DNA of 64,000 bases. Source: an uncultured Gammaproteobacteria bacterium. Lineage in GTDB: Bacteria; Patescibacteriota; Patescibacteriia; Magasanikbacterales; GWA2-37-8. The notes under the pieces are model-generated. The model did not search any database and was not told the origin of the DNA. It was given only the letters and a program-made list of their open reading frames with translations. The number at the start of each line of letters is the position of its first letter. Position 1 is the first letter of the stretch. A program made the position numbers and the translations under genes. The stretch spans positions 13,999 to 77,998 of the forward strand of contig CAZEDL010000007.1 of assembly GCA_964510885.1 (NCBI GenBank), given 5' to 3'. Positions 2,793-61,694 of this stretch are shown here, one piece after another.

Positions 2793-3173
2793 TTATTTAA
2801 GAACTACCTTACCACCAGCTTCTTCGATCTTTTTCTTCATCGCTTCGGCGTCTTCTTTCTTAACGCCTTCTTTTACCATCTTCGGAGCACCGTCTACCAG
2901 GGCTTTGGCATCAGCCAAACCAAGGCCGGTGATTTCTTTTACCACTTTGATCACATTGATCTTGTTAGCACCAGCATCGGTGAGCTCAACGTTGAATTCA
3001 GTTTTTTCTTCAGCCGGAGCGCCAGCAGCACCGCCAGCTGGAGCAGCCATCATCATGGCTGGAGCAGCCGCCGAGACGCCGAATTTTTCTTCCATGGCTT
3101 TAACGAGTTCAGCTAATTCCAAGACGGACAGCTGTTCTACATCGGTAATGATTTTCTGTAATTTGTCGTTCAT
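2793..3173 (-). CDS. rplL: 50S ribosomal protein L7/L12
   Basis: [33 protein letters not shown]... Ala/Pro hinge ... [33 protein letters not shown]. Canonical L7/L12. Confidence 0.95.
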
Positions 3174-4800: not shown

Positions 4801-5139
4801 TTACTTCTTAAGTAGCCACCCAGTGAACCACCCGATCACCGACATAGCAAGCGACCCGAAGAGCGCCGGTACAAACCCCTCCACCGTAAATCCTTTTACA
4901 ATCGTCGATACAAGCCAAAATAATCCGGCGTTGATAATAAAACTAAATAACCCCAAAGTCAGCAAATTTACTGGCAAGGTGAGCAACACAATCACCGGTC
5001 GCAAAATCGCATTGATAAGCCCAAGCACAATCGCCGCCACAATCGCAGCATACAAACTATCTACCCCAAAGCCAGGCAGATAATAAGCGATCAAAAGCAG
5101 CGCCCCAGCGTTAATAAGTAACCGCAATAAAAATTTCAT
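4801..5139 (-). CDS. DUF360 / phage-holin-4-like small membrane protein (YvlD family)
   Basis: MKFLLRLLINAGALLLIAYYLPGFGV...GLINAILRPVIVLLTLPVNLLTLGLFSFIINAGLFWLVS. Three to four TM helices in the characteristic DUF360 pattern. Confidence 0.7.
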   Translation of the reverse strand: MKFLLRLLINAGALLLIAYYLPGFGVDSLYAAIVAAIVLGLINAILRPVIVLLTLPVNLLTLGLFSFIINAGLFWLVSTIVKGFTVEGFVPALFGSLAMSVIGWFTGWLLKK

Positions 5140-5151
5140 ATCGTAATCATG

Positions 5152-5757
5152 TTACACACCGATCAGCAGGCGGAACAACCCATCAATAATCGGCGAGAGT
5201 AAATTGAATAAAAATAAGATAAAAATAATCACCAGCCAGGTACCATACCGATCCAAGAAATGCTTGATACCCTCTGCCTGGGCTGGCAGGAGCGCATACA
5301 AAACTTTCGACCCATCAAGCGGCGGCAGCGGCACCAAATTAAACACCATCAGCATCAGATTAGCATACACCACTTGAGCCAAAAATGGAGCCGCGGTGGT
5401 CGAGGGGAAAAGTCGCACCACTACTGCGAACATCGCCGCCAGGGCAAAATTAGCGAGCGGCCCGGCGATCCCAACGAGAGCCGGCCCCCATTTTTGATCG
5501 CGCAAATTATAGGGGTTATATGGCACGGGTTTCGCATATGCAAATACAAACCGCCCACCAGTCGCCACAAATAAAAATAGCGGCATAGCAATCGTACCAA
5601 TTGGATCAATATGCGCACGCGGATCAAGCGTCAAACGACCTGCATAGCGGGCTGTGGAGTCGCCAAGATACTCTGCCATCGCACCATGAGCATATTCATG
5701 CAAAATACTCGACGGCACAATAATTAAAAAATAGAATAGTAAGGCCAGAATATCCAT
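5152..5757 (-). CDS. M50 family (site-2 protease-like) zinc metalloprotease
   Basis: HEYAHGAMAEYLGD (HExxH) within a polytopic membrane protein. The size and topology fit SpoIVFB/RseP-like enzymes. Confidence 0.7.
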   Translation of the reverse strand: MDILALLFYFLIIVPSSILHEYAHGAMAEYLGDSTARYAGRLTLDPRAHIDPIGTIAMPLFLFVATGGRFVFAYAKPVPYNPYNLRDQKWGPALVGIAGPLANFALAAMFAVVVRLFPSTTAAPFLAQVVYANLMLMVFNLVPLPPLDGSKVLYALLPAQAEGIKHFLDRYGTWLVIIFILFLFNLLSPIIDGLFRLLIGV

Positions 5758-5968
5758 AACAGAAATACGTAAGCAAAATACGAATTAAAGTCGTATTTGG
5801 GAATAAATGAGGGTATACCTAGAGGTATATTGACAAAAACCTAGACCTAGCGTATCCTTATGAGCACTTACTATACCGTAACAAGCGGAAATGGGCAATG
5901 GAACTCTATTAGTCTCAGGCCCAACCACAAACTACTAATCCGCCAATTGGCGGACTAAATCACTCACT

Positions 5969-6139
5969 ATGAGCCGTACCTGCGCCCTCTGTGGCAAGCA
6001 AGCTGTCCGTGCCAATCACGTCAGCCATTCCAACCGCAAAGTGCCACGCCGCCAGAAGCCGAATTTACAGCTTCTGACCATTGCCGGACAGACTGTAAAA
6101 ACCTGCTCCAGCTGCCGCCGCACCTTAGCTAAAGCCTAA
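5969..6139 (+). CDS. rpmB: 50S ribosomal protein L28 (56 aa). It falls below the 60-aa ORF-track cutoff.
   Basis: Manual translation gives MSRTCALCGKQAVRANHVSHSNRKVPRRQKPNLQLLTIAGQTVKTCSSCRRTLAKA. This matches the L28 pattern M-R-C-x-x-GK-x-x-x-NxxSHSNxK...PNLQ. No obvious SD. Confidence 0.75.
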   Translation: MSRTCALCGKQAVRANHVSHSNRKVPRRQKPNLQLLTIAGQTVKTCSSCRRTLAKA

Positions 6140-6178: not shown

Positions 6179-6350
6179 GTTTAGCGCGGTGAGCGGCTTA
6201 ACATGTTCCTTGACGCTAGGTGGTAGACCGCACCAGTGGCCCACGGGCCGCTGAAATATAGGTGAACCTAAGGAAAATGTTGTAGAACAATATTCGCCAC
6301 TCAGCACCAAACGAAGATACTATAGCAAAAATTTTTGAGGGTTGTCAAAA

Positions 6351-6929
6351 TTAGTCGGTTAAGCGCTTGTAATTGAAGATAACCTCACGACCGCCGAACC
6401 AATGATTAATTTCGTGTTTGGCTTCTTCCGGCGTTTCCGAGGCGTGGATCAGATTCATCACCGCACGTTTTTCAGTGTTGGCGACAGCCGGTGAATCAGC
6501 AGAATAATCGCCGCGGATCGTGCCCATATCAGCCAAGAACGGCAGGGTAGCACCACAAATTTTGCGCACCATATCTACCGCATGTACCCCTTCTACCACC
6601 ATACGCACGAGCGGTGCCGACACCATATAATCAACCAGCCATTTGCGCACCATTTTACCGATCTCAAGATCGTCAGCGGTGCCAAGTTCATCCACTGCTT
6701 TGAGGCCATATTTTTCGTAGGTCGACAACGTTTTTTGACCCACCCGGCGCATCCAAGCTTCATCTTTCGGGTAATGGTTATCAATCTGGTCGGTAGTTGG
6801 CTGGAACATTTCAAGAGCCACGATTTTAAGATCGCGACGTTCAAACCGGGCAATGATCTCGCCAATTAATCCTTTTTGCACGCCGTCAGGTTTAATCATG
6901 ACGTACGTTTGTTCTTTTTTGAAATTCAT
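6351..6929 (-). CDS. ndk: Nucleoside diphosphate kinase
   Basis: EQTYVMIKPDGVQKGLIGEIIARFERRDLKIVALEM... NDK N-terminal motif. It is a long form carrying an insertion. Confidence 0.85.
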   Translation of the reverse strand: MNFKKEQTYVMIKPDGVQKGLIGEIIARFERRDLKIVALEMFQPTTDQIDNHYPKDEAWMRRVGQKTLSTYEKYGLKAVDELGTADDLEIGKMVRKWLVDYMVSAPLVRMVVEGVHAVDMVRKICGATLPFLADMGTIRGDYSADSPAVANTEKRAVMNLIHASETPEEAKHEINHWFGGREVIFNYKRLTD

Positions 6930-6987
6930 ACGTGTGTGAGAAGTAAAATCCCTAAAACAAGGAAATAATCTATCTTAAAGTACCCCG

Positions 6988-7016
6988 AATATACCGAATA
7001 AATCGAAATTTGTCAA
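6988..7016 (-). promoter_or_regulatory. Sigma70-type promoter for ndk
   Basis: On the minus strand, TTGACA-17nt-TATATT immediately upstream of ndk. Confidence 0.6.
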
Positions 7017-7327
7017 TGGATCACTACAAACCGGAGCTGTGCCGTTTTTTGCCTAGCATCAGGAGTCACAAGTAGTGAGGCAAGCAATATTCCAACCTCG
7101 CCGATACTTCGTTCGAAACAATATCGTTTGATAGTCTTTTGTAACTTACGGATTTTCTGCCTCGTGACCGCAAGATCCGTAGCCAACTCACCTAAACGAC
7201 GGGTCTTTACTTCAATAAAGTAATAATCCTCGCCATGTTTGGCCACAATGTCGATCTCTCCGACCGGGCTATAGTAATTGCGCTCGATAACCATGAATCC
7301 GCGCTGAGTCAACCACCGACACGCCAC
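7013..7327 (-). CDS. yraN: YraN/UPF0102 family endonuclease
   Basis: WLTQRGFMVIERNYYSPVGEIDIVAKHGEDYYFIEVKTRR. Classic YraN core. Confidence 0.8.
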   Translation of the reverse strand: MACRWLTQRGFMVIERNYYSPVGEIDIVAKHGEDYYFIEVKTRRLGELATDLAVTRQKIRKLQKTIKRYCFERSIGEVGILLASLLVTPDARQKTAQLRFVVIH

Positions 7328-7401: not shown

Positions 7402-7815
7402 TTAACGTTTAGGCTTCGGCAAGTAGCGCTCGCGGCGAGCCTTGAGGGCCTGCTCAGCTTTGATAGTCGGGAGCCGCTGCCGAGTATAGCGAATAATAGT
7501 AACTAACCAATATGCAAATACCCCGGCGGCAGGAAGAATCCAAAATCGCCACGCCAAAACCGGAATAATCTGTTGGCGGAGCCACAGCCAAATCACCCCA
7601 CATATACCCGCTGTCAGAGCGAGCGTTCCGTAGCGGCGCAGCAGTTCTTTTTTAGGAACCTCCGTTTCATAATACCGCCAGACAAACACCACCACTCCCG
7701 CCAAGACGAGCCCTAACACCACGGCCCATAAGGCGGTAGCCAGCCATCCCCGCGCAATATACGGTTGGCTGAACCAATAATCAAGTTTAAATAGATTTGT
7801 AATATTCATACTCAA
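7402..7815 (-). CDS. Hypothetical membrane protein (137 aa, ~4 TM)
   Basis: Hydrophobic helices and a basic C-terminus. No recognised family. Confidence 0.5.
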   Translation of the reverse strand: MSMNITNLFKLDYWFSQPYIARGWLATALWAVVLGLVLAGVVVFVWRYYETEVPKKELLRRYGTLALTAGICGVIWLWLRQQIIPVLAWRFWILPAAGVFAYWLVTIIRYTRQRLPTIKAEQALKARRERYLPKPKR

Positions 7816-7828
7816 AAATTAACAGTAA

Positions 7829-8374
7829 TTAACCTTTACGGAGAATAGCATAATAATGATAATCCCCTGCCGGTTCCTGGCCAGTAACCGTGAGTGCTCC
7901 TGGTACAAGGCCAGACAATGTCTCCGGGAGCACCAACCGATCAGGCGTCGGACCAACCGCTCCAAGATTCCGAGTCCACTCTACCACGACTACAAATCCA
8001 CCAGGCTTAATCAAACGCGCCGCCTCAGCCAGTGTTTCTTTCTGACCAGTGATGCGCGACAGAACATTTACAAAAAATACCCCGTCGAGCGTCCCTTCCG
8101 GAATCGCCGTTTTGCCCGAGAGTTCAATATCCGACCAAATCGTATGAATATTATCATACCCCTCGGCTCGGATACGGCCGCGGATATATTCTAACACCTC
8201 TTTCAAAATGTCAACTGCATATACGATCCCATTCTCTCCTACCAGTCGTGACAATGAAAAGATAAAATGTCCTGTCCGTCCACACCCAAAATCAGCCACA
8301 TGCATCCCGGGGCTAATTCCGGCTTTAATAAAAATTGCCTGCGGATCGACTAAGGCTACACCAGCATGACTCAT
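7829..8374 (-). CDS. Class I SAM-dependent methyltransferase
   Basis: VADFGCGRTGHFIFSLSRLVGENGIVYAVDI (motif I GxGxG) and a later acidic motif. Confidence 0.7.
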   Translation of the reverse strand: MSHAGVALVDPQAIFIKAGISPGMHVADFGCGRTGHFIFSLSRLVGENGIVYAVDILKEVLEYIRGRIRAEGYDNIHTIWSDIELSGKTAIPEGTLDGVFFVNVLSRITGQKETLAEAARLIKPGGFVVVVEWTRNLGAVGPTPDRLVLPETLSGLVPGALTVTGQEPAGDYHYYAILRKG

Positions 8375-8380
8375 AGCTAG

Positions 8381-8626
8381 CTACGAAGGAATCAAAAATC
8401 GGCCTACTGTGCCCTCCAAAAATCCGCCGAATAAATTAGTAATCACTAAAAATCCGATAAAAATAAAAGCCAAACCGATCAATTTATACATCAGGCGGCT
8501 GCCGCCGCTCGTGCCAAGATGCTCCTCAGCCCAGCTGATTGAACCAAAATTTTCAAAAAACCATTCGCTTTTTATAACGAGCAATACTCCTATCAGAGCC
8601 ACCACGAGCCCAATAATATAATGCAT
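8381..8626 (-). CDS. Small hypothetical membrane protein (81 aa, 2 TM)
   Basis: MHYIIGLVVALIGVLLVIKSEW...LIGLAFIFIGFLVITNLFGG. The ORF is non-overlapping. Confidence 0.45.
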   Translation of the reverse strand: MHYIIGLVVALIGVLLVIKSEWFFENFGSISWAEEHLGTSGGSRLMYKLIGLAFIFIGFLVITNLFGGFLEGTVGRFLIPS

Positions 8627-8694
8627 ACGAAGAAGCTTTAGGTTTAAAACAAAGACAGTATACCATTGTCTTGTTTTCTTGCCTAAAATCTGTG

Positions 8695-8777
8695 TGCCGG
8701 AGAGAGGACTCGAACCTCCATGGTCTTGCGACCGCTACCACCTCAAAGTAGTGCGTCTACCAATTTCGCCACCCCGG
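8695..8777 (-). tRNA. tRNA-Leu (anticodon GAG), class II with a long variable arm
   Basis: Reverse complement: GCCGGGGTGGCGAAATTGGTAGACGCACTACTTTGAGGTGGTAGCGGTCGCAAGACCATGGAGGTTCGAGTCCTCTCTCCGGCA. The cloverleaf folds with anticodon loop TTGAGGT, a GGTC/GACC variable stem and a TTCGAGT T-loop. Confidence 0.85.
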
Positions 8778-12723: not shown

Positions 12724-13815
12724 TTATAAACGAGTATTCAGACTAAAAATATCATCGAATGATACCAGCCAGGAGCCCTGCACCGGATCATTTAGCGCGA
12801 TCCGGCGCGCCAAATAGGCGCAGAATCCCGAAGCAATCGTTACCGTGCTCACCAGTTGCGGCCGACCAACTAGTGTTTTGCCGATCTCGGCCACCGAATC
12901 AAGCGCGCGCTGTGGAATATGAGAAACACCAGCCAGAGCCACGGCATATTTATGTTTATCAGTGGTGCTTAGATCAGGCGACGTCAAAATATCATTCGGC
13001 ACCTGCCCAGCCCGGCCATTAAAAAAAGGAGTATTCGGATCACAATCATACCGCTCCACATCCAAAATGACCCGATCGCCAATATTGGTGACCATAATCA
13101 CCGGTATGCGGGCCTCACGCGCCATTTGGCGCAAATATATTTTCATGGCAAAGCTGTCGATAATTTCAAAAATCAACTGGGGCTTTGGATCACCTAGGAC
13201 AAATTCAGATAACACCTCGGGCTGCAGCCCAGCGGTCATGAAACTGAGCTCCGCATACGGGTCAATTTCATATATTTGCTCAGCCACAATACCTATTTTG
13301 CGCTGGCCGATCTGATCAATCCGCGCCCGAATACGATTTAAATTAGAGGTTTCAAGTGTATCGAATTCCGCCAGTTTGATCTGTTTCGCCATTCCGCTAT
13401 AAGCCAAAGCCGTAGCCACTCCACTCCCAACCGATAGCCCCACCGCACCAACGCGAAATGCCCGAATCGTCTCTTGTTCCTCCGCTGTAATCAAATTTCG
13501 ATTGCGATTAGTGCGTAGCGCCAAATACTCGGCCTCAGTCACCGTATGCACCAATCGTCCGCTCCAGGGATAATAAATCCAATTCCCGAGAAGTTTGCCG
13601 TCCGTGCCATTTAGACACTGCAGAATAAAGTCTGCGCGCTTATTGGCAAAAGCCGGGTCATTAATAAGTTCGGCATGAGTAATCTCAAATAACTCTGCCA
13701 GCTGCCCCTGATACATATCCTGTTCTTTCCAGATTGGGTATGACGCTCTTAAACGAATGAGGTCGCTATCCGTGTAAGAACCTTCTGTCAAAATAATCGG
13801 TCGGGCGTGTTCCAT
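12724..13815 (-). CDS. ThiF/MoeB/E1-like adenylyltransferase with a ~110-aa N-terminal extension
   Basis: Rossmann GxGxxG VGAVGLSVGSGVATALAYSG. ThiF signature DFDTLETSNLNRIR. No CxxC. Its stop abuts the hydrolase start. Confidence 0.75.
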   Translation of the reverse strand: MEHARPIILTEGSYTDSDLIRLRASYPIWKEQDMYQGQLAELFEITHAELINDPAFANKRADFILQCLNGTDGKLLGNWIYYPWSGRLVHTVTEAEYLALRTNRNRNLITAEEQETIRAFRVGAVGLSVGSGVATALAYSGMAKQIKLAEFDTLETSNLNRIRARIDQIGQRKIGIVAEQIYEIDPYAELSFMTAGLQPEVLSEFVLGDPKPQLIFEIIDSFAMKIYLRQMAREARIPVIMVTNIGDRVILDVERYDCDPNTPFFNGRAGQVPNDILTSPDLSTTDKHKYAVALAGVSHIPQRALDSVAEIGKTLVGRPQLVSTVTIASGFCAYLARRIALNDPVQGSWLVSFDDIFSLNTRL

Positions 13816-23766: not shown

Positions 23767-23795
23767 TTGACACAAATTAAAAAATATGCTATAGT
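23767..23795 (+). promoter_or_regulatory. Consensus sigma70-type promoter upstream of the high-GC gene
   Basis: TTGACA-17nt-TATAGT. Confidence 0.7.
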
Positions 23796-23807
23796 GCTTA
23801 GTTGCTA

Positions 23808-23836
23808 TTATGTCTAAATTAGAATTTAGACATAAA
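23808..23836. promoter_or_regulatory. Perfect 13-3-13 palindrome (candidate operator) just downstream of the -10 element
   Basis: TTATGTCTAAATT-AGA-AATTTAGACATAA. Confidence 0.55.
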
Positions 23837-24027
23837 ATAGTAATTAAATAATAGTTATATTTAAGGCAAATTAAGGTTTGTACCTTAACAATTCAGTTGG
23901 CTAAATACCAATAACTTAAAAATGTACGCGCAGACTAAAGAATTAAAATTCTAATTTTTTGATCTGCGCGTATCAACGCGTAAACAATTAACAAGGCCTG
24001 TCCAGGCTGTAGAAAAGGAGGCATATC

Positions 24028-25242
24028 GTGCCAAAACCGTACGACGAGAAACTGCAAAAGTTCAGAACCACACAGGAGGCGGATATCCGCCAAGGAAGGC
24101 TCATACGGCTCATTCCTCAGAAGGAGGAGCGCATCAAAACAACGCTCCAAGACCTCAGGAACCAGAGTGATCGCCGGGTCGCTATCCTGGCAGGTAAGCT
24201 CCTGGCAGAGCGAACCGCCCTCTCAACCCAAGACGCCCAGTTTGAGGCTGTGAAACTCGTGGGGGAGGAGATCTGGGCCGAAGGCGAAGAGGCCAAGGCC
24301 GAGGCGGAGAGGTGGCTCCAGGGCCAGCTCACCACCCCTCTTAACGTCCACGAAACAGCAGAGCTGACACGTCGAAGCAGAGAAGAGGAAGAGCGTCTGG
24401 AGGCCATTTACCAGGCCGAGATCTCGGCCGAACAGGCCCGCCTCGCCGAGGAGCCACCAAGCCGGACCACGGTGCCGGAGCGCACAATGGATCCGACCAT
24501 GTTCCACGGCAGGGCTCTCCCGGTCCTCGAGACGGACGATATGGAGGAGGCGGGCCCGGCTCCAACCGCGCTGGACACCCTTCCCCCGCAGGAAAGAGAG
24601 CTGGCCTCGGTCATTGTGGACCAGGCTGGGATCGAATCCCGGGTCCACCCCCTCAGCCCGCACCGTCCTCCAACGACGGCGCACCGGATGATCGGGGAAG
24701 CGCCCCACCCCGCCAACCAGACTCCCATCGAGCCACTGGCGGCCACACCCAGGCGTGCGGCCACCCAGAACGAGGTCGATACCCTGGTGCGACGAGGCCC
24801 CGCTCCCAAGGAGCGATGGCACCTGAACGATAAGCAAAAATCCGTGCTATGGGTTTTGATCTTGGTGGGAGTGCTGGTGGGTGGAGGAGGATGCCTTGCG
24901 TGGCTTGTCAACAAGCTATCCACCTCGGAGCGTCCCGCCGCCGCCCGGGTGCTGAACCAAACCGCTCCCGAAATCACGCCCGCCATGCAGCGGGCGATCG
25001 ACAAGGCGGTGGCCACTGAGGTCGCCGCCAAGACAGCGGAGTGGGAGAAGAGATTCACCCTGCGCAGCGAGGTCCGCGCGCTCATCATGAGCGAGGTGAG
25101 CACCCAGCTCCCCCCGGAGCAGCCAGCGCCCCCGCGCCCCCGGCCGCTGCGCCCCCGGCCGCTGCCCGACTTCGACAAGGGCCGCCAGCCTGACAGGCCC
25201 GGCCTCCGGTACCCGTTTACCACCACGAGGCCACGCCGCTAA
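24028..25242 (+). CDS. Hypothetical Pro-rich single-pass membrane protein encoded in a high-GC island (404 aa)
   Basis: GTG start with a perfect AAGGAGG SD 6 nt upstream. Charged N-terminal region, TM helix VLWVLILVGVLVGGGGCLAWLV, PRPRPLRPRPLP tail. ~65% GC with AGA/AGG Arg codons, unlike neighbouring genes. Confidence 0.6.
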   Translation: MPKPYDEKLQKFRTTQEADIRQGRLIRLIPQKEERIKTTLQDLRNQSDRRVAILAGKLLAERTALSTQDAQFEAVKLVGEEIWAEGEEAKAEAERWLQGQLTTPLNVHETAELTRRSREEEERLEAIYQAEISAEQARLAEEPPSRTTVPERTMDPTMFHGRALPVLETDDMEEAGPAPTALDTLPPQERELASVIVDQAGIESRVHPLSPHRPPTTAHRMIGEAPHPANQTPIEPLAATPRRAATQNEVDTLVRRGPAPKERWHLNDKQKSVLWVLILVGVLVGGGGCLAWLVNKLSTSERPAAARVLNQTAPEITPAMQRAIDKAVATEVAAKTAEWEKRFTLRSEVRALIMSEVSTQLPPEQPAPPRPRPLRPRPLPDFDKGRQPDRPGLRYPFTTTRPRR

Positions 25243-25313
25243 CCACGACCAACCCACCCCCCCACACCGCTCCGATCTAATCGGAGCCCAGCCTATCGGG
25301 GTGGAACGACTAA

Positions 25314-25399
25314 TCCAGGCCAGCCAGCGTCCACCCCTCCTGACCGATCGAGTCTCTCGATAGTTCAGGAGGACGCTCGCTGCCTGGATTTTTTGTTTT
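25314..25399 (+). terminator. GC-rich intrinsic terminator after the high-GC gene
   Basis: TCCAGGCCAGCCAGCG...CGCTCGCTGCCTGGA followed by TTTTTTGTTTT. Confidence 0.6.
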
Positions 25400-25428
25400 C
25401 TAAACATGATAATAAAAGGGGTTACTCC

Positions 25429-25582
25429 ATTCGCACGAGCTCATTCGGAATGACAAATAAAGAGTAAAGTGACCAGATTCGCGCCTGCGCGGGAATGACA
25501 ATTGGCCGGACAGAGATTCCTCACATTCGTTCGGAATGACAAGTGTTTGGACAGAGATCCTTCGCTCCGCTCAGGATGACAA
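25429..25582 (+). repeat. Tandem array of four family-1 hairpin units (ATTC-N14-19-GGAATGACAA), separated by 14-20-nt spacers ending in GACAGAG/GACCAG
   Basis: Units at 25429-25456, 25477-25501, 25516-25552 and 25557-25582. Unit 2 (ATTCGCGCCTGCGCGGGAATGACAATTGG) is near-identical to dispersed copies. The unit-4 loop TTCGCTCCGCTCAG recurs at 36348. Confidence 0.8.
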
Positions 25583-25910
25583 TTGAAAATAACAAAAAAC
25601 ACAAAAAAAATACTTCAATCACTACAACGCTCACCACCCCGCACCATTGCGCAGCTGAGGCCATCTGGCCCCGGTGAACAGAAGCGGCCGGCAGAGCAGG
25701 CGCTGCTGTTTGAGGCCCAACGGGCCGAGTTCAGGGCCCGAGCTTCGACGCGCCGTTGGCAGCGGCCGAGTGAAGCACCGGTTCGGTGGTTTTTTGGGCC
25801 TGTCCTCCGGATGAGGATACTTTTTTGCCATCAAAAAAGTAACATACCACTCACCAAAAGGTGGTTTACGGTCGGAGACAAAAAGTCACACACCGTCACA
25901 AAACACCAAA

Positions 25911-36261: not shown

Positions 36262-36347
36262 ACGTTATAAATTTATAGAAATTAGCCAGTAAGTTTAACT
36301 GACTACTTCAAACCATTGTCTAAACTTTTCTAAAAATCTTCATTCTT

Positions 36348-37148: not shown

Positions 37149-37200
37149 ACCATTATAAAGTCATTCATCGGCGGAGGGAGGAGAGAAGCCTCTCTCAAAT

Positions 37201-37224
37201 TGTCATTCCCGCCTGCGCGGAAAT
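37201..37224. repeat. Family-1 hairpin unit between scpA and aspS
   Basis: TGTCATTCCCGCCTGCGCGGAAAT. Confidence 0.75.
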
Positions 37225-37241
37225 GATAGACAAAACCAAAA

Positions 37242-38922: not shown

Positions 38923-39930
38923 TTACTGATTTCCAAACTTCTCGGCCATCTCAATCAGCCGGTGCGCATACCCATATTCATTATCATACCACGCCACCAC
39001 TTTCACCAAATTTCCGCCCACCACATTCGTCAGTTTCAAATCAACCGTGGCCGAGTTGCTATTAGCAATAAAATCCGACGAAACCAATTCTTCTTCAGTA
39101 CATCCCAAAATACCTTTGAATTGAGCGCTGTTAGCAGCTGCTACGAGCGCCGCATTTACTTCTTCAATCGTCACATCTTTTTTAAGCACTGCCGTAATAT
39201 CAGATAGCGACACCGTTGGCACCGGCACCCGGAAGGCGACACCATCAAACTTCCCCTTGAGCGACGGAATCGCTTCGGTGGTAGCAATCGCTGCTCCGGT
39301 CGTCGTCGGCGTAATATTCTCGGCCGCCGCCCGCGCCCGGCGCAAATCTTTGTGAGGCCCATCTTGAATATTTTGATCAGCCGTATACCCATGCACCGTG
39401 GTCATCATCGCCTTTTCAATCCCAAATGATTCTTCAAGCACCGCCATCACCGGCGAAATACAATTGGTGGTGCACGACGCGTTATTAATAACCGTCGACG
39501 ATTCTGTCTTAAGATCATCCGAATTCACGCCAAGAACGTACGTCGGCACGCCGCCTTTGGCGGGCGCGCTCACCACCACTTTCTTAGCACCAGCTTTAAT
39601 GTGCATCTCCGCTCCTTCCTTAGTCGTAAAGCGGCCTGTGCACTCAAGAACGACATCTACCTCTAGCACACCCCACGGCAAGGCCGCCGGATCTTTTTCC
39701 GCATACACAGGAATCTTTACCCCATCCACAATTATATTTTTTTCATCATACGTCACGTCATGTTCATACGTGCCATACGAGGTATCATGCTTGAGTAAAT
39801 GTGCTAATGTCTTGGTATCCGTCAAATCATTAATCCCAACAAATGAAATATTCTTTTTTCCAAATCCAGCTCGGAAGGCCTGGCGGCCAATACGGCCAAA
39901 ACCATTAATCGCAAGATTAGTCATAAGCAC
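38923..39930 (-). CDS. gap: Glyceraldehyde-3-phosphate dehydrogenase (type I)
   Basis: NLAINGFGRIGR NAD-binding motif, catalytic ASCTTNC. Confidence 0.95.
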   Translation of the reverse strand: MLMTNLAINGFGRIGRQAFRAGFGKKNISFVGINDLTDTKTLAHLLKHDTSYGTYEHDVTYDEKNIIVDGVKIPVYAEKDPAALPWGVLEVDVVLECTGRFTTKEGAEMHIKAGAKKVVVSAPAKGGVPTYVLGVNSDDLKTESSTVINNASCTTNCISPVMAVLEESFGIEKAMMTTVHGYTADQNIQDGPHKDLRRARAAAENITPTTTGAAIATTEAIPSLKGKFDGVAFRVPVPTVSLSDITAVLKKDVTIEEVNAALVAAANSAQFKGILGCTEEELVSSDFIANSNSATVDLKLTNVVGGNLVKVVAWYDNEYGYAHRLIEMAEKFGNQ

Positions 39931-39960
39931 ACAATTAAGTGACTAGTAGGTAAGAGATAG

Positions 39961-41139
39961 TTACAGAACGCGGGCAAAAAAACACTTCAAATATTCTCCT
40001 TCGGTAAACGACACGAGCTCGGGATGATCGATGCCATGCGTATACGTTTCCAAAATCTGCACCGTTCGTCCAGCACGCGCCGCCGCTTCACTCAGCATAA
40101 ATCTGAAGTCCTGCAGGGTCACATGCGCCGAGCACGACGCCGTTACCAGAATACCGTTTTGAGGCAAAATTCGCAAGGCCATTTCGTTGATTTTTCGATA
40201 CCCATGCAAGCCTTCCTTTACCTTGTGCCGATCTTTCACAAAGGCTGGCGGATCAAGGATAATCACGTCAAATTCGCCCACCGTTCGATCAGCCAAGTAT
40301 TCCTTCACGTCGGCCGCGATAAACTCGGCTTTCGCAGCAGGCAACTTATTCAACTTCACATTCGCCTCGGCCATTTCAAGGGCCGGCACCGACGCATCTA
40401 CACTCACGACCGACTCGGCTCCCGCTGCCAAAGCATACACACTAAATCCACCTGTATACGAAAAACAATTCAACACTTTTTTCCCATTCACATATTTTGT
40501 CAGCGTCTGCCGCTTATCTCGTTGATCCAAAAAGAAACCGGTCTTTTGGCCTTGCTTTACATCAACCAAAAACTGCCACCCATTTTCCAGAATGGTAATC
40601 TGATCCGGAACTTCCCCATACAGTACCCCGGTGACTTCGATCGGCGCGCGCTCTTTACGCTCTCGCACATCCGAACGCTCGTAAATCCCTTTAGGTTTTA
40701 CGGCTGTCGCCAGTGCTTCAACAATTTCTTTTTTCCACTTCGCAATCCCCGCCGTGTGACACTGCACTACTAAGTAATCAGCATACTTATCTACTATTAA
40801 ACCAGGAAGCCAATCGTTCTCCGCGTGCACCAATCGATAAGCGTTCGTCGCTTTTGACACTACCAACTCTTGGCGCAAATCGTACGCAGCCTGAATTCGT
40901 TTTTTAAAAAAATCAACATTAACTTCTTCATTGTCAACAAAGCCCCACAACCGGACCGCCATCTGGGAGTATGAATTAAAGTACCCAGCCGCCAAAAAGC
41001 TACCATTTTCATCCACCAACCGCACCGGCTCCCCGCTCATCAAGCCTTCGGGAATAGCCTGCAACGCCCCCGAAAACACCCACGGATGTCGCCCCCGAAT
41101 CGGCCCCAGCCGCTGCGTTTTGACAGTTAATGCAACCAT
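39961..41139 (-). CDS. rlmI: PUA-domain class I SAM-dependent rRNA methyltransferase (RlmI/RlmK-like)
   Basis: N-terminal PUA-like region. FSYTGGFSVYA (SAM motif I) and ILDPPAF (motif IV DPP). Confidence 0.7.
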   Translation of the reverse strand: MVALTVKTQRLGPIRGRHPWVFSGALQAIPEGLMSGEPVRLVDENGSFLAAGYFNSYSQMAVRLWGFVDNEEVNVDFFKKRIQAAYDLRQELVVSKATNAYRLVHAENDWLPGLIVDKYADYLVVQCHTAGIAKWKKEIVEALATAVKPKGIYERSDVRERKERAPIEVTGVLYGEVPDQITILENGWQFLVDVKQGQKTGFFLDQRDKRQTLTKYVNGKKVLNCFSYTGGFSVYALAAGAESVVSVDASVPALEMAEANVKLNKLPAAKAEFIAADVKEYLADRTVGEFDVIILDPPAFVKDRHKVKEGLHGYRKINEMALRILPQNGILVTASCSAHVTLQDFRFMLSEAAARAGRTVQILETYTHGIDHPELVSFTEGEYLKCFFARVL

Positions 41140-41200
41140 AATAAATAAAGTAAAGGTAAGGCATAAATCTTAACATAGATAAAAATATTGGTCCAAATGG

Positions 41201-41229
41201 TTGACAAAAGAACCTTTTTTTGCTATAAC
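41201..41229 (+). promoter_or_regulatory. Consensus sigma70 promoter driving the high-GC lipoprotein gene
   Basis: TTGACA-17nt-TATAAC. Confidence 0.7.
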
Positions 41230-41353
41230 TTCGTCAAAATAACTTTACAAAATTAGACAATTACTCATCTCAACCAGCCAAGCCGTTAAACCAATACCGA
41301 CTCGGCTGGTGGAGCAATCTCGCTTCTACCAGACCGCTACCAAGGAGGTAGTC

Positions 41354-41893
41354 ATGATCCGACAGAACGCACGCACGATCGCCACCCTCAGCATCGCCCT
41401 CGGCCTCACAGGATGCGGGGCTGATGCACCCGGCGGGGGCGGCAACACCTGCACCGACTTCGACGTGAGCGTCGACTCGACGAGCCCGAGCGGCACGGTC
41501 ACGGCCGGACAGCAGGCGGACGTGATCCACTTCAACGTGAAGGGCTGCACGGGCTTCACCCTGATGAACCTCTTCACCTGGGCTTCCGGGAACAGCTCCC
41601 CCTACCTGGACGGAGTCCCCTACCAGGTGATCGGTCTCAGCGACGGCATGATCTACCAGAACTGGCAGACCGCGAACGGAGCGGCCCACCTGGGCGCCGC
41701 GGACGACACCAACTACGTGGCCCTCTCCACCGGGTCGGTCTACAAGCTGGTGCTGGGCCTGCCGGCGGGCCTGCCCTCTGGTACCACGATGCAGTGGCAC
41801 CCCGCCGGCTTCCACTACAAGGACACCGACGGCATGACCCACGACGGCAGCGCACCGCCCACCGCGGTCGGCAACACGCTGACGATCAAGTAG
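41354..41893 (+). CDS. Hypothetical lipoprotein encoded by a high-GC, high-GC3 island
   Basis: AGGAGG SD then ATG. MIRQNARTIATLSIALGLTGCGAD (signal plus LTGC lipobox). GC3 is near 90% (atc/aac/gac/ctg codons), unlike host genes. A GC-rich terminator follows. Confidence 0.65.
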   Translation: MIRQNARTIATLSIALGLTGCGADAPGGGGNTCTDFDVSVDSTSPSGTVTAGQQADVIHFNVKGCTGFTLMNLFTWASGNSSPYLDGVPYQVIGLSDGMIYQNWQTANGAAHLGAADDTNYVALSTGSVYKLVLGLPAGLPSGTTMQWHPAGFHYKDTDGMTHDGSAPPTAVGNTLTIK

Positions 41894-41997
41894 TCGCGGT
41901 CCAAAGCGCCGCGATGAGCAAGGGCTGACCAGCGCCGTTCGCTGGCCAGCCCGCCTTTCTCTAAAATCATAAACAACGACTTACGATTTGAGAGAAT

Positions 41998-42028
41998 AAA
42001 AAAATTCCGGCTTAACCGGAATTTTTTT
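41998..42028. terminator. Bidirectional intrinsic terminator between the lipoprotein gene and tsf
   Basis: aaaAATTCCGGcttaACCGGAATTttttttt. Confidence 0.75.
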
Positions 42029-42038
42029 ATTGCATTTT

Positions 42039-42680
42039 TTACAACTGCGCGTTCACCTCATCCGCAAAATTCACTGATTTCTTTTCAATCCCCTCACCCA
42101 GTTCATAGCGTACAAACCGGCGAATACTAATCTTCTCACCAATCTCGGCTGTCTTTTCTACCAAGAGCTGCTGAATTTTTTTACTATCATCTTTGATATA
42201 CAGCTGCTCGAGCAAACAAATTTCTTCGTAAAATTTGTCGATTTTACCTTTCAGAATATTTTCAATAATATTGGCTGGTTTGCCCTGGGACTTCAGCTGA
42301 TCAGCATATATCTCTTTTTCTTTTTCAACGAGTTCGGCTGGCACTGATTCGCGATCCAAATATTTCGGATTAGCGGCCGAGATATGCAAACAAATTTCTT
42401 TGACTAAATCTTTGAATGCATCCGTGCGGGCCACAAAATCAGTTTCGGAATTCACTTCGACCAAGACACCAATGCGCCCGCCGCCGTGAATATAACTCGC
42501 CACCATGCCTTCGCTGGCGACGCGATCTGCCTTTTTGGCAGCTTTTACAATCCCTTTTTTGCGCAAAATTTCACTGGCTTTGTCTACGTCGCCACCAGCT
42601 TCTTCAAGCGCGTTTTTGCAATCCATCATGCCGGCGCCAGTCGCGGCGCGCAGCTTAGCAATGTCGGCTGCTGTTGCCAT
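42039..42680 (-). CDS. tsf: Elongation factor Ts (short form)
   Basis: MATAADIAKLRAATGAGMMDCKNALEEAGGDVDKASEILRKKG. Canonical EF-Ts UBA-like N-terminus. Confidence 0.9.
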   Translation of the reverse strand: MATAADIAKLRAATGAGMMDCKNALEEAGGDVDKASEILRKKGIVKAAKKADRVASEGMVASYIHGGGRIGVLVEVNSETDFVARTDAFKDLVKEICLHISAANPKYLDRESVPAELVEKEKEIYADQLKSQGKPANIIENILKGKIDKFYEEICLLEQLYIKDDSKKIQQLLVEKTAEIGEKISIRRFVRYELGEGIEKKSVNFADEVNAQL

Positions 42681-42791: not shown

Positions 42792-42874
42792 CTGTCATCC
42801 CCGCGTAGGCGGGGATGACAGTCACAGACAACTGGAGAAACCATTCTAGATTCCCGCTTTCGCGGGAATGACAA
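42792..42874. repeat. Two family-1 hairpin units between tsf and rpsB
   Basis: CTGTCATCCCCGCGTAGGCGGGGATGACAG ... GATTCCCGCTTTCGCGGGAATGACAATTGG. The second ends identically to array unit 2. Confidence 0.8.
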
Positions 42875-42895
42875 TTGGATTAATTGGGGAAGCAA

Positions 42896-43888: not shown

Positions 43889-43962
43889 GTAGAGGATTGA
43901 CTTATTCAATGGATATGATAAGGTGCGCTGTCCAGAATCTGGACACAGAGGAAAAAAATAAG

Positions 43963-44661
43963 ATGAAGATGGTTAAAATTTTTTTTCCGGGCTATGCCCA
44001 CGACGACACTGCTCACTTTCAACTTCAAGATCGGGCAATCCATTACCGATCAAAAAGTTGGTTGGGCTGGCAAACCCTTGGCAATAAAGCCGAGGTGAGC
44101 GCTCGACTCCTCCACGGAATATTGAATAACCTAGCAGACGATCAGGGTGTGGAAGTTGTAGCCCACTCGCTCGGCTGCCTAATAGCCGTGTGGGCGATCA
44201 CCCTCCTGCCTGCAGACAAGCGCAAACAGATCACCCAGCTCACCCTAGTAGCACCCACCGGCTTCTGTAATCGCCGACGGTTCCTGACCTTCTGGTTCCT
44301 GTTCATCCTGGTCGGCTGGCGCGGACATCTAGCCGCCCTCCTAGGGCTCTTGTTCCCAAAACACGGTGCCCTGGTGCCGCCTTCGGTAGCAACGCGCCTG
44401 TATGGGCACCGGCATGAAACCGGAGAAATAGTCCACGACTCGTCTGTTGCATTTCTCCAGCTGGTGCTCGGGCTCTACCCGAATGCCTTGGCCAGACTGT
44501 TGGCTCAGGGCTTCGACCGGGACAAAATTACCATGGTCGGTGGGACGCACGATGCCTGCGTGAATGCCCAGTGGGTCCACGACGAAGCCGCCACGGCTGA
44601 GACGAGTTACCACGAGCTGCCAGTCGCCCACTGCGGCCACCCCACCACCTTCCCCTACTGA
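43963..44661 (+). CDS. Alpha/beta-hydrolase-fold protein (esterase/lipase-like), moderately GC-rich
   Basis: The start is moved to MKMVKIFFPGYAHDD (GAGGA SD 11 nt upstream; the ORF track starts at 43897). Nucleophile elbow VVAHSLGCLIAV. C-terminal HDACV...CGH region. Confidence 0.55.
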   Translation: MKMVKIFFPGYAHDDTAHFQLQDRAIHYRSKSWLGWQTLGNKAEVSARLLHGILNNLADDQGVEVVAHSLGCLIAVWAITLLPADKRKQITQLTLVAPTGFCNRRRFLTFWFLFILVGWRGHLAALLGLLFPKHGALVPPSVATRLYGHRHETGEIVHDSSVAFLQLVLGLYPNALARLLAQGFDRDKITMVGGTHDACVNAQWVHDEAATAETSYHELPVAHCGHPTTFPY

Positions 44662-44796: not shown

Positions 44797-44888
44797 ATTA
44801 ATCAATAAACCGCAGTCCTATACAAAAACTTATTTTTGTATAGAATATATTTACCAGAAATTTTTCTGGCAACTCCAGGAGTTTGATA

Positions 44889-45134
44889 ATGTTACGTAAA
44901 ATTGTCAGTTCGTTTATAATGATCTGTCTGTGCATGGGAGGTTCGAATAACGACATCCCAAGCGCCGGCGGGCAGAACGCACAAGCCTGCATGTGCATCT
45001 GCAAACCCGGCTGTGACACAGGAGAATACTGTGTGCAGAAGGGCTGCAGCTGTAGCTGCAAAAAAATCCCTACTCCTCCTAACGAGCCGCTGCCGGCACC
45101 CGAAAGTAAACCGGTGTGCGAGACACAGAAGTAG
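44889..45134 (+). CDS. Secreted Cys-rich small protein (81 aa; 12 Cys in ~50 mature residues)
   Basis: AGGAG SD. MLRKIVSSFIMICLCMGGSNNDIPSAGGQNAQA (signal, AxA site), then CMCICKPGCDTGEYCVQKGCSCSCKKIPTPPNEPLPAPESKPVCETQK. The ORF track starts 6 nt earlier at TTG. Confidence 0.55.
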   Translation: MLRKIVSSFIMICLCMGGSNNDIPSAGGQNAQACMCICKPGCDTGEYCVQKGCSCSCKKIPTPPNEPLPAPESKPVCETQK

Positions 45135-48869: not shown

Positions 48870-49295
48870 ATGGCTAAAAAAGTATTAGCGCTCATCAAAC
48901 TCCAAATCGTTGGTGGCGCCGCCAATCCAGCGCCTCCAGTTGGTCCGGCGCTTGGTCAGCACGGCGTGAACATCGCCGGTTTCTGTAAAGAATTCAACGA
49001 CAAAACCCAAGATAAAAAAGGTGAGGTCGTGCCAGTCATCATCTCGGTCTACTCTGATCGCAGCTTCAGCTTCATCATGAAGACCCCGCCAGTACCAGAA
49101 CTGATCAAAAAGGCCGCTGGTATCAAAAAGGGCTCTGGCAAACCACTTCAGGAAAAAGTCGGTAAAATCACCAAAGCCCAGGTAAAACAAATCGCTGAAA
49201 AGAAACTCCCAGATCTTAACTGCAGCACCGTCGAATCCGCCATGCGCATGGTCGAAGGCACTGCCAAACAAATGGGAGTAACCATCGAAGGCTAA
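48870..49295 (+). CDS. rplK: 50S ribosomal protein L11
   Basis: [43 protein letters not shown]... Confidence 0.95.
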
Positions 49296-55864: not shown

Positions 55865-56224
55865 ATGAGCGAAATGACCGCTAATAGCACTGCAATGCCA
55901 ACCTACAAACCAGGCATGGTGGTGAAAGTGCACCAAAAAATTAAAGAAACCAACGCCAAAGGCGAAGAGAAAGAACGTATTCAGATCTACGAAGGCACCA
56001 TTATCGCCGTCCGCCACGGCAAAGAAGCCGGCGCCACCGTCACGGTGCGCAAAGTATCCGAAGGCATCGGCGTCGAAAAAATCTTCCCGATCCTTTCACC
56101 AATGGTTGCCAAAATGGAAATCGTCAAACAATTTGCTGTCCGCCGCGCCAAACTCAACTACCTCCGCGACAAAGATTTCAAACGCAAGATGAACGAAATC
56201 AAAGACGATAAAGCCAAAAAATAA
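55865..56224 (+). CDS. rplS: 50S ribosomal protein L19
   Basis: KERIQIYEGTIIAVRHGKEAGATVTVRKVSEGIGVEKIFPILSPMVAKMEIVKQFAVRRAKLNYLR. Confidence 0.9.
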   Translation: MSEMTANSTAMPTYKPGMVVKVHQKIKETNAKGEEKERIQIYEGTIIAVRHGKEAGATVTVRKVSEGIGVEKIFPILSPMVAKMEIVKQFAVRRAKLNYLRDKDFKRKMNEIKDDKAKK

Positions 56225-60935: not shown

Positions 60936-61694
60936 CTAAAAACCTTGTAAAAATGTATCCCACACGGCAAATGGGATCACCCCTTCTACTTTTTCTCCGT
61001 TGATAAAAAAGGTCGGGGTCCCGCGCACGCCAAAGCGGGAACCATCCACATAATCACGATTCACTGCCGTACGTGCTGCCGGCGCTGCCAGACAGGCCGA
61101 CAACACAGCCCCATCAAGATCATTAGCCTCGACAATCTGGAGTTGGGTAGCCGCATCAAGCTGATCAGGCAAGATATCCTGCTTTGCAAACAACCAATCC
61201 TGCACCGGCCAATACTTGCCCTGAGCGCCAGCGCAATAAACCAATTCCGACAACTGCGAGGCTCCCGGATGGGTAGTCTCTACCGGAAAATGGCGCATAA
61301 TATATTTAATTTTAGTTGGGTATTTTTGCAAAATCTGTTTAATTATCGGGGCTGCCTCTCTGCAATTGGGGCATTTAAAGTCAGTAAACTCGACAATCGT
61401 AAGCGGCGCCCCGCCATTGCCCTGATACGGACTGCTTGTATTCTCCAAAATCGCCCGCTCTGTAGCAGATAGTACGGAAGTCCGCAGGCTGTCGGCTTGA
61501 TTCCCAGTACTAAAGCCGGCAAAAAGGCCCTGTGACAAGCCGGTAGACTGACCACTTCGGATGTCACGCCAAAATCGAGCTGTAATCAAGATGAACAAAA
61601 AAACGGCCGTCGCTACAAAGACTGCTAAAATTAGCAATAAAATCCCCCACCACCGCCAATACCATGAGCGAGGTACCGAGGTCATTTCCTCCAT
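60936..61694 (-). CDS. DsbA-like thiol-disulfide oxidoreductase with N-terminal TM anchor
   Basis: Thioredoxin-fold CxxC active site TDFKCPNCREAAPII. N-terminal TM WWGILLLILAVFVATAVFLFILI. Confidence 0.75.
   Translation of the reverse strand: MEEMTSVPRSWYWRWWGILLLILAVFVATAVFLFILITARFWRDIRSGQSTGLSQGLFAGFSTGNQADSLRTSVLSATERAILENTSSPYQGNGGAPLTIVEFTDFKCPNCREAAPIIKQILQKYPTKIKYIMRHFPVETTHPGASQLSELVYCAGAQGKYWPVQDWLFAKQDILPDQLDAATQLQIVEANDLDGAVLSACLAAPAARTAVNRDYVDGSRFGVRGTPTFFINGEKVEGVIPFAVWDTFLQGF

Follow-up and report, generated by a model that had tools for sequence, protein, structure and literature searches.

A GC-rich putative surface-lipoprotein gene in the rlmI-tsf interval of Candidatus Magasanikbacteria whose composition may be maintained

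A gene of atypical G + C content is commonly taken to have arrived recently by horizontal transfer. In the amelioration model of Lawrence and Ochman, compositionally atypical "alien" islets derive from horizontal transfer. Among the fast-evolving variable surface lipoproteins of wall-less or host-dependent bacteria, the Vsp and Vlp families of Mycoplasma vary by means of repeats, promoters that undergo phase variation, or site-specific inversion among several paralogues. In Borrelia, the genus of Lyme disease, the vls lipoprotein cassettes have ~49% G + C in genomes of ~29%, which the authors attribute to selection (PMC11499132). Here we describe a gene that resembles each of these in some respects. 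It lies on the plus strand at positions 41354-41893 of a 64,000-nucleotide stretch of DNA (the window; positions 13,999-77,998 of contig CAZEDL010000007.1, assembly GCA_964510885.1), in the interval between rlmI and tsf, and encodes a predicted lipoprotein of 179 amino acids. Coordinates refer to the window unless a relative is named. We give about an even chance (roughly 0.5) to the reading that this is a clade-restricted, fast-evolving surface lipoprotein whose high G + C content is preserved by a still-active fixation bias against G/C-to-A/T change. The rule of thumb on atypical composition thus appears to fail here.

The G + C content of the open reading frame (ORF) is 0.67, with values of 0.57, 0.52 and 0.92 for the first, second and third codon positions (the last called GC3 below), and 164 of the 179 sense codons end in G or C. 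An earlier reading made from the letters of the sequence only (the sequence-only reading) had put GC3 at ~90%, unlike the housekeeping genes of the window. This was borne out, as the remaining 60 window ORFs have a mean GC3 of 0.49 (standard deviation 0.063, maximum 0.65), leaving the lipoprotein gene at z = 6.8. The window holds a single further GC3 outlier, ORF 24028-25242 (0.77). Measured in 50-nt steps, the G + C content jumps from 0.28-0.40 to 0.58-0.74 at ~41290 and is back down to 0.36 at ~41955.

Codon choice in the gene is opposite to that of the host, and the gene is foreign-looking in composition. All 28 asparagine codons are AAC, while the host picks AAT 77% of the time, and the ratio for AAG/GAG/CAG is 44:3, against a preference for AAA and GAA in the host ribosomal-protein genes. 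A high GC3 in highly expressed native genes, which the sequence-only reading had named as a finding that would refute its proposal, did not occur: rplK, rplL and rplS use NAC codons at 72-84%, yet they favour AAA and GAA and have a GC3 of ~0.5. Expression-driven codon bias (translational selection) was therefore ruled out. The agreement between gene and backbone in the preference for C- over G-ending codons (rho = 0.83, n = 8) was too weak and was not used. In the lipoproteins as a group (see below), Gly, Ala, Arg and Pro jointly account for 0.27-0.30 of the residues versus 0.26 in the backbone, and Phe, Tyr, Met, Ile, Asn and Lys 0.16-0.20 versus 0.26. From this mild amino-acid shift it follows that the compositional pressure extends beyond third codon positions.

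Both the metagenomic source and the abrupt switch in composition could point to a chimera, made during assembly or binning, of a Magasanikbacteria genome and a high-GC organism. The sequence-only reading had likewise allowed for an assembly artefact. However, window positions 39218-41797 are matched at 100% identity by a Logan contig of run SRR16481186, which crosses the left junction, and three genomes from other studies have the same layout and homologous proteins. Because an independent contig passes through the junction and the relatives share the architecture, the segment is not chimeric. The other GC-rich segment of the window, around ORF 24028-25242 (island 1), is also present at 100% identity in Logan contigs from two sequencing runs, one of which spans both junctions. 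These independent assemblies refute the chimera, to which we attach practically no credence.

By its Tsf, RpsB, RlmI, GAPDH and AspRS proteins, the window belongs to Candidatus Magasanikbacteria, within the candidate phyla radiation (CPR). In the genes next to the lipoprotein gene, the nearest genome (L085, GCA_964585245.1) has 77-89% protein identity to the window. Two further genomes, L003 and L004, whose Tsf proteins are 98% identical to each other, have 71-83%, and no closer relatives were found through the 90%-identity clusters of Tsf, RlmI, RpsB and AspRS. The lipoprotein itself had no match among 5.8 billion protein clusters, where a profile search likewise gave no homologue beyond the rlmI-tsf slot, and an exhaustive phmmer search of 1.84 billion representatives returned two relatives only, P0001 (E = 1.9e-6) and P0002 (E = 1.1e-4). 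Both are lipoproteins. The gene of P0001 lies in L085 between rlmI and tsf, on the strand opposite to both. In L004, P0002 is encoded downstream of tsf in the convergent orientation, on a contig that ends before rlmI. A third copy was located between tsf and rlmI in L003. The GC3 of the four genes is 0.92 (window), 0.91 (L085), 0.89 (L003) and 0.88 (L004), in genomes with an overall G + C content of 0.45-0.48 and a GC3 of 0.36-0.54 in the neighbouring genes. For tsf, rlmI, rpsB, gap and aspS of the three relatives, the GC3 is 0.36-0.49.

These results do not support the recent, repeated acquisition from a high-GC donor that had been proposed on compositional grounds. A recent island is expected to be absent from the same site in close relatives, and here L085, L003 and L004 all carry a homologous GC-rich gene. 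Relatives of the lipoprotein were found solely in the rlmI-tsf slot and are equally GC-rich, and searches for a donor homologue in phage, plasmid, viral and JGI metagenome sets (including a protein profile search) were empty. A phage or plasmid origin was rejected, given the lack of matches in the phage, plasmid and viral sets. The borders carry no signature of mobility: the flanks are rlmI and tsf, and there are no direct repeats (no integrase-directed scan of the window ORFs was made). No tRNA gene is closer than those at 8695 and 53741. Because slot, promoter, leader and hairpin are conserved, divergence scales with that of the backbone and no donor was found, we consider the island old and resident. 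Our literature searches returned no paper that describes such a maintained GC-rich gene.

The age of the unit can be set against the retention of its composition. In pairwise comparisons of the window, L085 and L003, the proportion of synonymous differences (pS) in neighbouring genes is 0.65-0.79. At the fourfold degenerate sites of the backbone, the retained G/C-versus-A/T state (E) amounts to 0.06, 0.15 and 0. A neutral island that had started at 100% GC would by now be expected to have a fourfold-site GC of 0.55-0.74, versus the 0.86-0.93 that is observed. At the protein level, the lipoproteins of different lineages are only 29-34% identical, versus 71-89% for the neighbouring proteins. Between the window and L085, the 114 codons with a changed amino acid have a GC3 of 0.92, the same as the 59 unchanged ones. 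Since changed codons are as GC3-rich as unchanged ones, the codons have turned over under a regime that favours G and C.

The rate of nonsynonymous change (dN) in the lipoprotein gene relative to that in tsf was 7.7, 5.7, 5.3 and 5.3 over four genome pairs that cover a 13-fold range of divergence (dN of tsf 0.012-0.166), i.e. the lipoprotein sequence changes 5-8 times faster than that of its neighbour. The N- and C-terminal residues are similar between the window and L085. Because dN scales with the backbone, and because promoter, leader, termini and 3' hairpin are common with L085, we infer vertical descent of the whole unit combined with fast protein evolution.

The close pair L003/L004 offers a finer comparison. 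In the flanking genes, DNA identity is 0.80-0.98 per 60-nt window and typically ~0.9. Within the lipoprotein gene, the DNA of the mature domain is 93-100% identical and that of the signal-peptide part 55-72%, with break points just past the signal peptide and at the stop codon. The backbone of this pair has 69 G-C swaps and 360 G/C-A/T differences in 934 fourfold sites. In the 85 fourfold sites of the mature region, 4 G-C swaps were observed where 11.7 are expected, and 2 G/C-A/T differences where ~30 are expected. The first figure suggests a ~3-fold more recent common ancestry of the mature segment, which could reflect exchange between lineages. The second is suggestive of a further ~5-fold deficit of changes that lose G or C. 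The L004 allele was also present in three independent samples, identical or with 1 base different.

The history that we favour would run as follows. The gene would have become fixed in the rlmI-tsf slot of one Magasanikbacteria subclade before the four sampled lineages split and would have been inherited together with its promoter; the mature-domain segment may have been exchanged between lineages at least once. Throughout, fixation of G/C-to-A/T changes in the lipoprotein gene would have been disfavoured, either by selection on composition, for which the Borrelia vls cassettes are a precedent (PMC11499132), or through GC-biased repair in an often-recombining segment. More tentatively, and with somewhat less than even confidence, the persistence of a GC3 of ~0.9 within a genome of GC3 ~0.5, beyond saturation of silent sites and with the protein down to 30% identity, could mark a locally maintained compositional domain, driven either by selection acting on base composition or by repair that favours GC at a surface-protein locus prone to recombination. 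If such maintenance is real, the gene is a natural test case for the forces that set base composition within a genome (selection, biased gene conversion, mutation).

Several points weigh against a maintained composition. To our knowledge there is no mechanism that keeps one bacterial gene at a GC3 of 0.9. The razor-sharp GC borders, with untranslated hairpins inside them, have the look of an inserted fragment, and such abruptness would not be expected from a diffuse process like biased gene conversion; in L003 and L004 the GC borders match the coding sequence almost exactly. Selection for a particular mRNA fold was rejected as a cause, since the native coding sequences have no advantage in folding over permutations of their synonymous codons (z = +0.3, -1.4 and +0.3) and so show no specific mRNA structure beyond composition. 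The deficit of G/C-losing changes beyond that of G-C swaps in L003/L004 is marginal (p ~0.06), and part of the low silent divergence of this pair is due to the more recent ancestry of the segment. The comparison covers four genomes, all of them metagenome-assembled, and alignments at ~30% identity leave 30-38 comparable fourfold sites per pair. Finally, a donor homologue of 25% identity or below could escape a search that starts from one sequence.

The sharp borders, which also enclose the ribosome-binding site of the gene and its T-poor GC hairpins, could be explained by repeated independent import from a high-GC pool, for instance from the host of these epibionts, with each lineage replacing the occupant of the slot by a diverged homologue. 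The high GC3 would then be a trace of the evolution of these alleles within a high-GC organism. Composition and codon use opposite to the host's fit this as well, as does the greater likeness of L003 and L004 in mature-domain DNA than in their backbones. GC-rich islets also come and go in these genomes: L004 has an extra one that is missing in L003 despite ~98-99% identity of the nusG and gyrB flanks, and in another Magasanikbacteria genome a GC-rich asparaginase-like gene adjoins a low-GC paralogue. The locus indeed shares with alien islets a sharp jump in G + C and GC3, non-host codon use, a surface-exposed product and a site between housekeeping operons. Unlike them, it is found in the corresponding slot of three other species, has kept its composition despite saturated silent sites in the backbone, and is accompanied by no donor, mobility gene or flanking repeat that we could find. 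An import series would moreover have to be reconciled with the lack of any homologue beyond the syntenic slot in all collections searched, with divergence that tracks the backbone, with homology of promoter, leader, signal-peptide ends and 3' hairpin between the window and L085, and with borders free of integrase, tRNA gene and direct repeats (within the limit given above for integrases). In-frame replacement of a 30%-identical allele without flanking homology to the donor also lacks an obvious mechanism. We therefore regard repeated import as unlikely. A single ancient transfer into the common ancestor, not yet adjusted to host composition and with no maintaining force, would account for a foreign-looking gene that is common to the whole subclade. 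With the silent sites of the backbone saturated, however, all alleles lie above the neutral expectation for fourfold-site GC, and 70% of the codons end in G or C even after a change of amino acid. A mutation rate many times below that of the neighbouring genes, which alone might have rescued the idea, is contradicted by its 5-8 times higher dN. Of the histories weighed in this and the next paragraph, this one seems to us the least credible.

The predicted surface location of the product and the break points in L003/L004 could also be those of an expression site of the antigenic-variation type, in which promoter, leader and signal peptide are fixed and the mature segment is rewritten by gene conversion from GC-rich silent copies, the G + C content being needed for recombination, as has been proposed for vls. 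Borrelia vlsE/vls is likewise a surface lipoprotein locus whose G + C content is conserved across species despite sequence divergence (PMC11499132). The vls coding strand is G-rich (skew ~0.5) with G runs and an adjacent array of silent cassettes; the lipoprotein gene, by contrast, has a C-rich coding strand (skew -0.10) and no G-quadruplex motif on either strand, which led us to reject a vls-like G-rich recombination substrate. No silent cassette or other second copy was detected in the window or in the minor part of each relative's genome that was covered, either by blastn or by a six-frame profile search of ~1.2 Mb of loci (including the 64-kb window and 48 kb of the three relatives), and the near-identity of the L004 allele in three independent samples also speaks against such a system. 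There is no sequence or fold relationship between vls and the lipoprotein. Gene conversion of this kind thus appears improbable, and maintenance of the composition in a vertically inherited gene remains the reading that we prefer.

Two other systems that diversify or carry single genes were considered and rejected. For the target of a diversity-generating retroelement, a template repeat matching the variable region would be expected, but no part of 41181-41990 recurs in the window (best chance match 18 nt), and variation extends across the whole protein and is not restricted to a C-terminal patch (window ORFs were not scanned for reverse transcriptase). An integron cassette was rejected since GTTCGCT in the hairpin at 41922-41952 does not fit GTTRRRY, the consensus of attC core sites (no integrase-directed scan was made), and since the unit is solitary between housekeeping genes and fixed in position across species.

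The slot is bordered on the left by an rlmI-type rRNA methyltransferase gene (39961-41139, minus strand; Pfam PUA_3 and Methyltrans_SAM; syntenic in L085 and L003) and on the right by tsf, encoding elongation factor Ts (42039-42680, minus strand; Pfam EF_TS, E = 6.6e-44; syntenic in L085, L003 and L004). The lipoprotein gene runs opposite to both, in agreement with its earlier description as a plus-strand gene among minus-strand neighbours. Its promoter is of the extended -10 type, with TTGACA at 41201-41206, a 17-nt spacer that contains TG at 41221-41222, and TATAAC at 41224-41229. The elements are present as the sequence-only reading had given them, although "textbook" was slightly generous, the -10 hexamer ending in C; because of this last base, a strict sigma-70 scan missed the promoter. 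The pattern TTGACA-N14-TGNTANNNT has 7 matches in the window versus 0.85 expected, several of them upstream of native ORFs, and the promoter is of the type used by the host. It is kept in L085, L003 and L004.

The 5' leader is ~125 nt long (41230-41353), AT-rich over its first ~55 nt, and contains an imperfect inverted repeat (41269-41288 and 41295-41314). A block at 41297-41351 is conserved with L085 at 75% identity (40-nt windows), with long identical stretches such as CTCGGCTGGTGGAGCAATC and CCAGACCGCTACCAAGGAGGTAG, which contrasts with the 34% protein identity of the coding sequence. A possible hairpin that covers the ribosome-binding site (CUACC/GGUAG) appeared in the window fold but was not robust in L085. 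The Shine-Dalgarno sequence AGGAGG (41343-41348), 5 nt before the ATG, is conserved in L085. No Rfam family matched the leader or the 3' region, apart from sub-threshold chance matches on the terminator, and an exact search of the leader in the JGI metagenomes returned nothing.

Downstream, a first GC-rich hairpin (41893-41915, from folding, with a counterpart in L085) overlaps the stop codon of the coding sequence. It is followed by a second, GGGCTGACCAGCG / CGCTGGCCAGCCC and then CCTTTCTCT (41922-41952), with 13-nt arms that are 92% complementary; this one is retained in L085 as a structure, with a changed sequence of the inner stem. The fold of the 146-nt 3' region has a z of -8.1. An AT-rich bidirectional intrinsic terminator (41995-42031; 16-bp perfect stem flanked by A and T runs) is common to the convergent tsf, and L085, L003 and L004 have equivalent terminators. 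The Shine-Dalgarno sequence, GC hairpin and shared terminator are thus all present as had been proposed. As a working model, the host-type promoter would drive a single-gene unit with its leader and strong ribosome-binding site, and the transcript would be ended by the two GC hairpins together with the terminator shared with tsf.

An ORF on the minus strand (41270-41842) was rejected as a real gene, as the GC3 signature, the lipobox and the homologues all belong to the plus frame. It is the stop-free shadow usual for a GC3-rich gene, and its translation is of low complexity and rich in Arg, Gly and Val. Automatic gene calling on the Logan contig (L002, 1-528) nevertheless chose this shadow, and both the true 179-residue product and a 194-residue version with a GTG start are absent from a collection of 15 billion proteins. 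For these reasons, genes like this one are likely to be under-counted.

The N-terminus carries a signal peptide with lipobox L-T-G-C (41354-41416, plus strand), as had been claimed. The segment TLSIALGLTGC ends at Cys21, the predicted lipidated N-terminus, and Arg3 and Arg7 precede it. The protein and all three homologues pass a rule of the PROSITE PS51257 type (K or R early, a hydrophobic core, [LVI][ASTVI][GAS]C, Cys at 15-35), and Cys21 is invariant in the alignment; a weak match to Pfam LPAM_1 (E = 0.23) carries no weight by itself. Other invariant positions in the four sequences are Cys33, Cys65, ANGAAH (107-112) and several Gly, Asp, Trp and His residues. The signal peptide and lipobox would route the product through the Sec pathway, lipidation and cleavage by signal peptidase II, with Cys21 as the lipid anchor. 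Lgt and signal peptidase II were not among the scanned ORFs of the 64-kb window. The window does encode a DsbA-like oxidoreductase (60936-61694), in keeping with disulfide bonding of the conserved cysteines in an extracytoplasmic domain.

The mature part (41417-41890, plus strand) is modelled as a Gly-rich tether followed by an all-beta domain of ~145 residues. In the AlphaFold2 model, built from a three-sequence alignment, the mean predicted local distance difference test (pLDDT) score is 74.7, with 64-93 for blocks over residues 41-180, and the domain has 11 strands; residues 1-32 (signal peptide and Gly-rich tether) are disordered. The confident sandwich model, the lipobox of all four members and the invariant cysteines and ANGAAH motif support a genuine protein. 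The tether would hold the beta-sandwich domain outside the membrane. The best Foldseek matches in the PDB were type I-III cohesins, a DUF4466 protein and the sandwich domains at the N-termini of GH123 and GH33 enzymes, at 5-15% sequence identity and template modelling (TM) scores of 0.35-0.5, which are too weak for family assignment; matches to viral protein structures were equally weak. The protein has no Pfam, NCBIfam, PHROG or PDB-sequence family match. Cohesin and carbohydrate-binding beta-sandwich modules are of similar size and all-beta architecture, so that a common fold class is plausible from the model, although nothing is significant at the sequence level. From fold class, location and rapid evolution, the protein is likely to be a surface binding module for a host cell, partner or ligand. 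CPR surface proteins probably mediate attachment to host cells and are almost entirely uncharacterised. In its small size, own strong promoter, hypervariable mature part and conserved signal peptide and lipobox, the lipoprotein resembles the Mycoplasma Vsp/Vlp proteins; unlike these, it appears to be encoded by a single copy, with no repeats or invertible elements nearby.

Island 1 (23767-25400) is the other GC-rich segment of the window. It has a promoter TTGACA-17-TATAGT at 23767-23795, an AT-rich leader of ~230 nt with two palindromes, an ORF of 404 codons (24028-25242) and a long GC hairpin terminator (25312-25390). The sequence-only reading had given it the same arrangement as the lipoprotein gene and a secreted or surface product. 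It is indeed a GC3 outlier behind a host-type promoter, but its product, which lacks a signal peptide and carries a single hydrophobic segment inside the chain, does not qualify as a classical secreted protein. Among 5.8 billion clusters the protein had no homologue but itself. As an orphan without relatives, island 1 therefore neither supports nor refutes a common donor. Cumulative GC skew declines steadily over the whole window, from which both GC-rich islands are probably lagging-strand (head-on) genes.

Further GC-rich islets were seen in the relatives. The extra gene of L004 (6159-6596, minus strand) encodes 145 amino acids with a GC3 of 0.83 and has a near-lipobox FLWGC, its own TTGACT promoter and a GC hairpin. 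It lies between secE-nusG and gyrB and is missing from the corresponding region of L003 (6307-6670). It was rejected as a paralogue of the rlmI-tsf family, since a profile comparison matched the signal peptide only. In Magasanikbacteria GW2011_GWC2_37_14 (L005, G + C 0.39), the asparaginase-like gene and its low-GC paralogue lie at 4916-6019 and 6214-7242 (both plus strand), and 7 kb from this pair is a GC-rich gene for a multi-pass membrane protein (13028-13750, minus strand). As the islets, which encode envelope proteins, recur variably (island 1, L004, L005), some of them are acquired or lost over short times; the rlmI-tsf gene is stable. The lipoprotein gene could belong to a broader class of orphan GC-rich genes for envelope proteins in Magasanikbacteria, with island 1, the extra L004 gene and the L005 islands as other candidates.

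Variable content was also observed elsewhere around the slot. An alpha/beta-hydrolase-like gene between rpsB and gyrB (43897-44661, plus strand) has a moderately raised GC3 of 0.65. Its counterpart in L085 (12648-13484, minus strand) is inverted, 29% identical and of host composition (GC3 0.41), and the position looks like another variable slot. Between this gene and gyrB, the window has an 83-codon Cys-rich ORF (44883-45134, plus strand; CMCICKPGC...CSCSCKK) with a hydrophobic N-terminus and no Pfam match. An islet of opposite sign is found in L085, where two low-GC genes (7404-8636; GC3 0.16 and 0.25) that are missing in the window lie between gap and rlmI.

Over the window as a whole, the use of NAC versus NAT codons varies strongly with strand and expression level, as codon counts for 48870-49295, 2793-3173 and 55865-56224 exemplify, and most minus-strand genes use ~20% NAC. 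A palindromic intergenic repeat of the REP (repetitive extragenic palindromic) kind, approximately TGTCATTCCCGCG-loop-CGCGGGAATGACA, is present in 3-4 copies just downstream of island 1 (25440-25600), with other copies at 37195-37225 (minus strand), 42793-42822 and 42850-42876 and near 36347 and 62209. Spurious ORFs that run through this repeat read "SFPRKRES".

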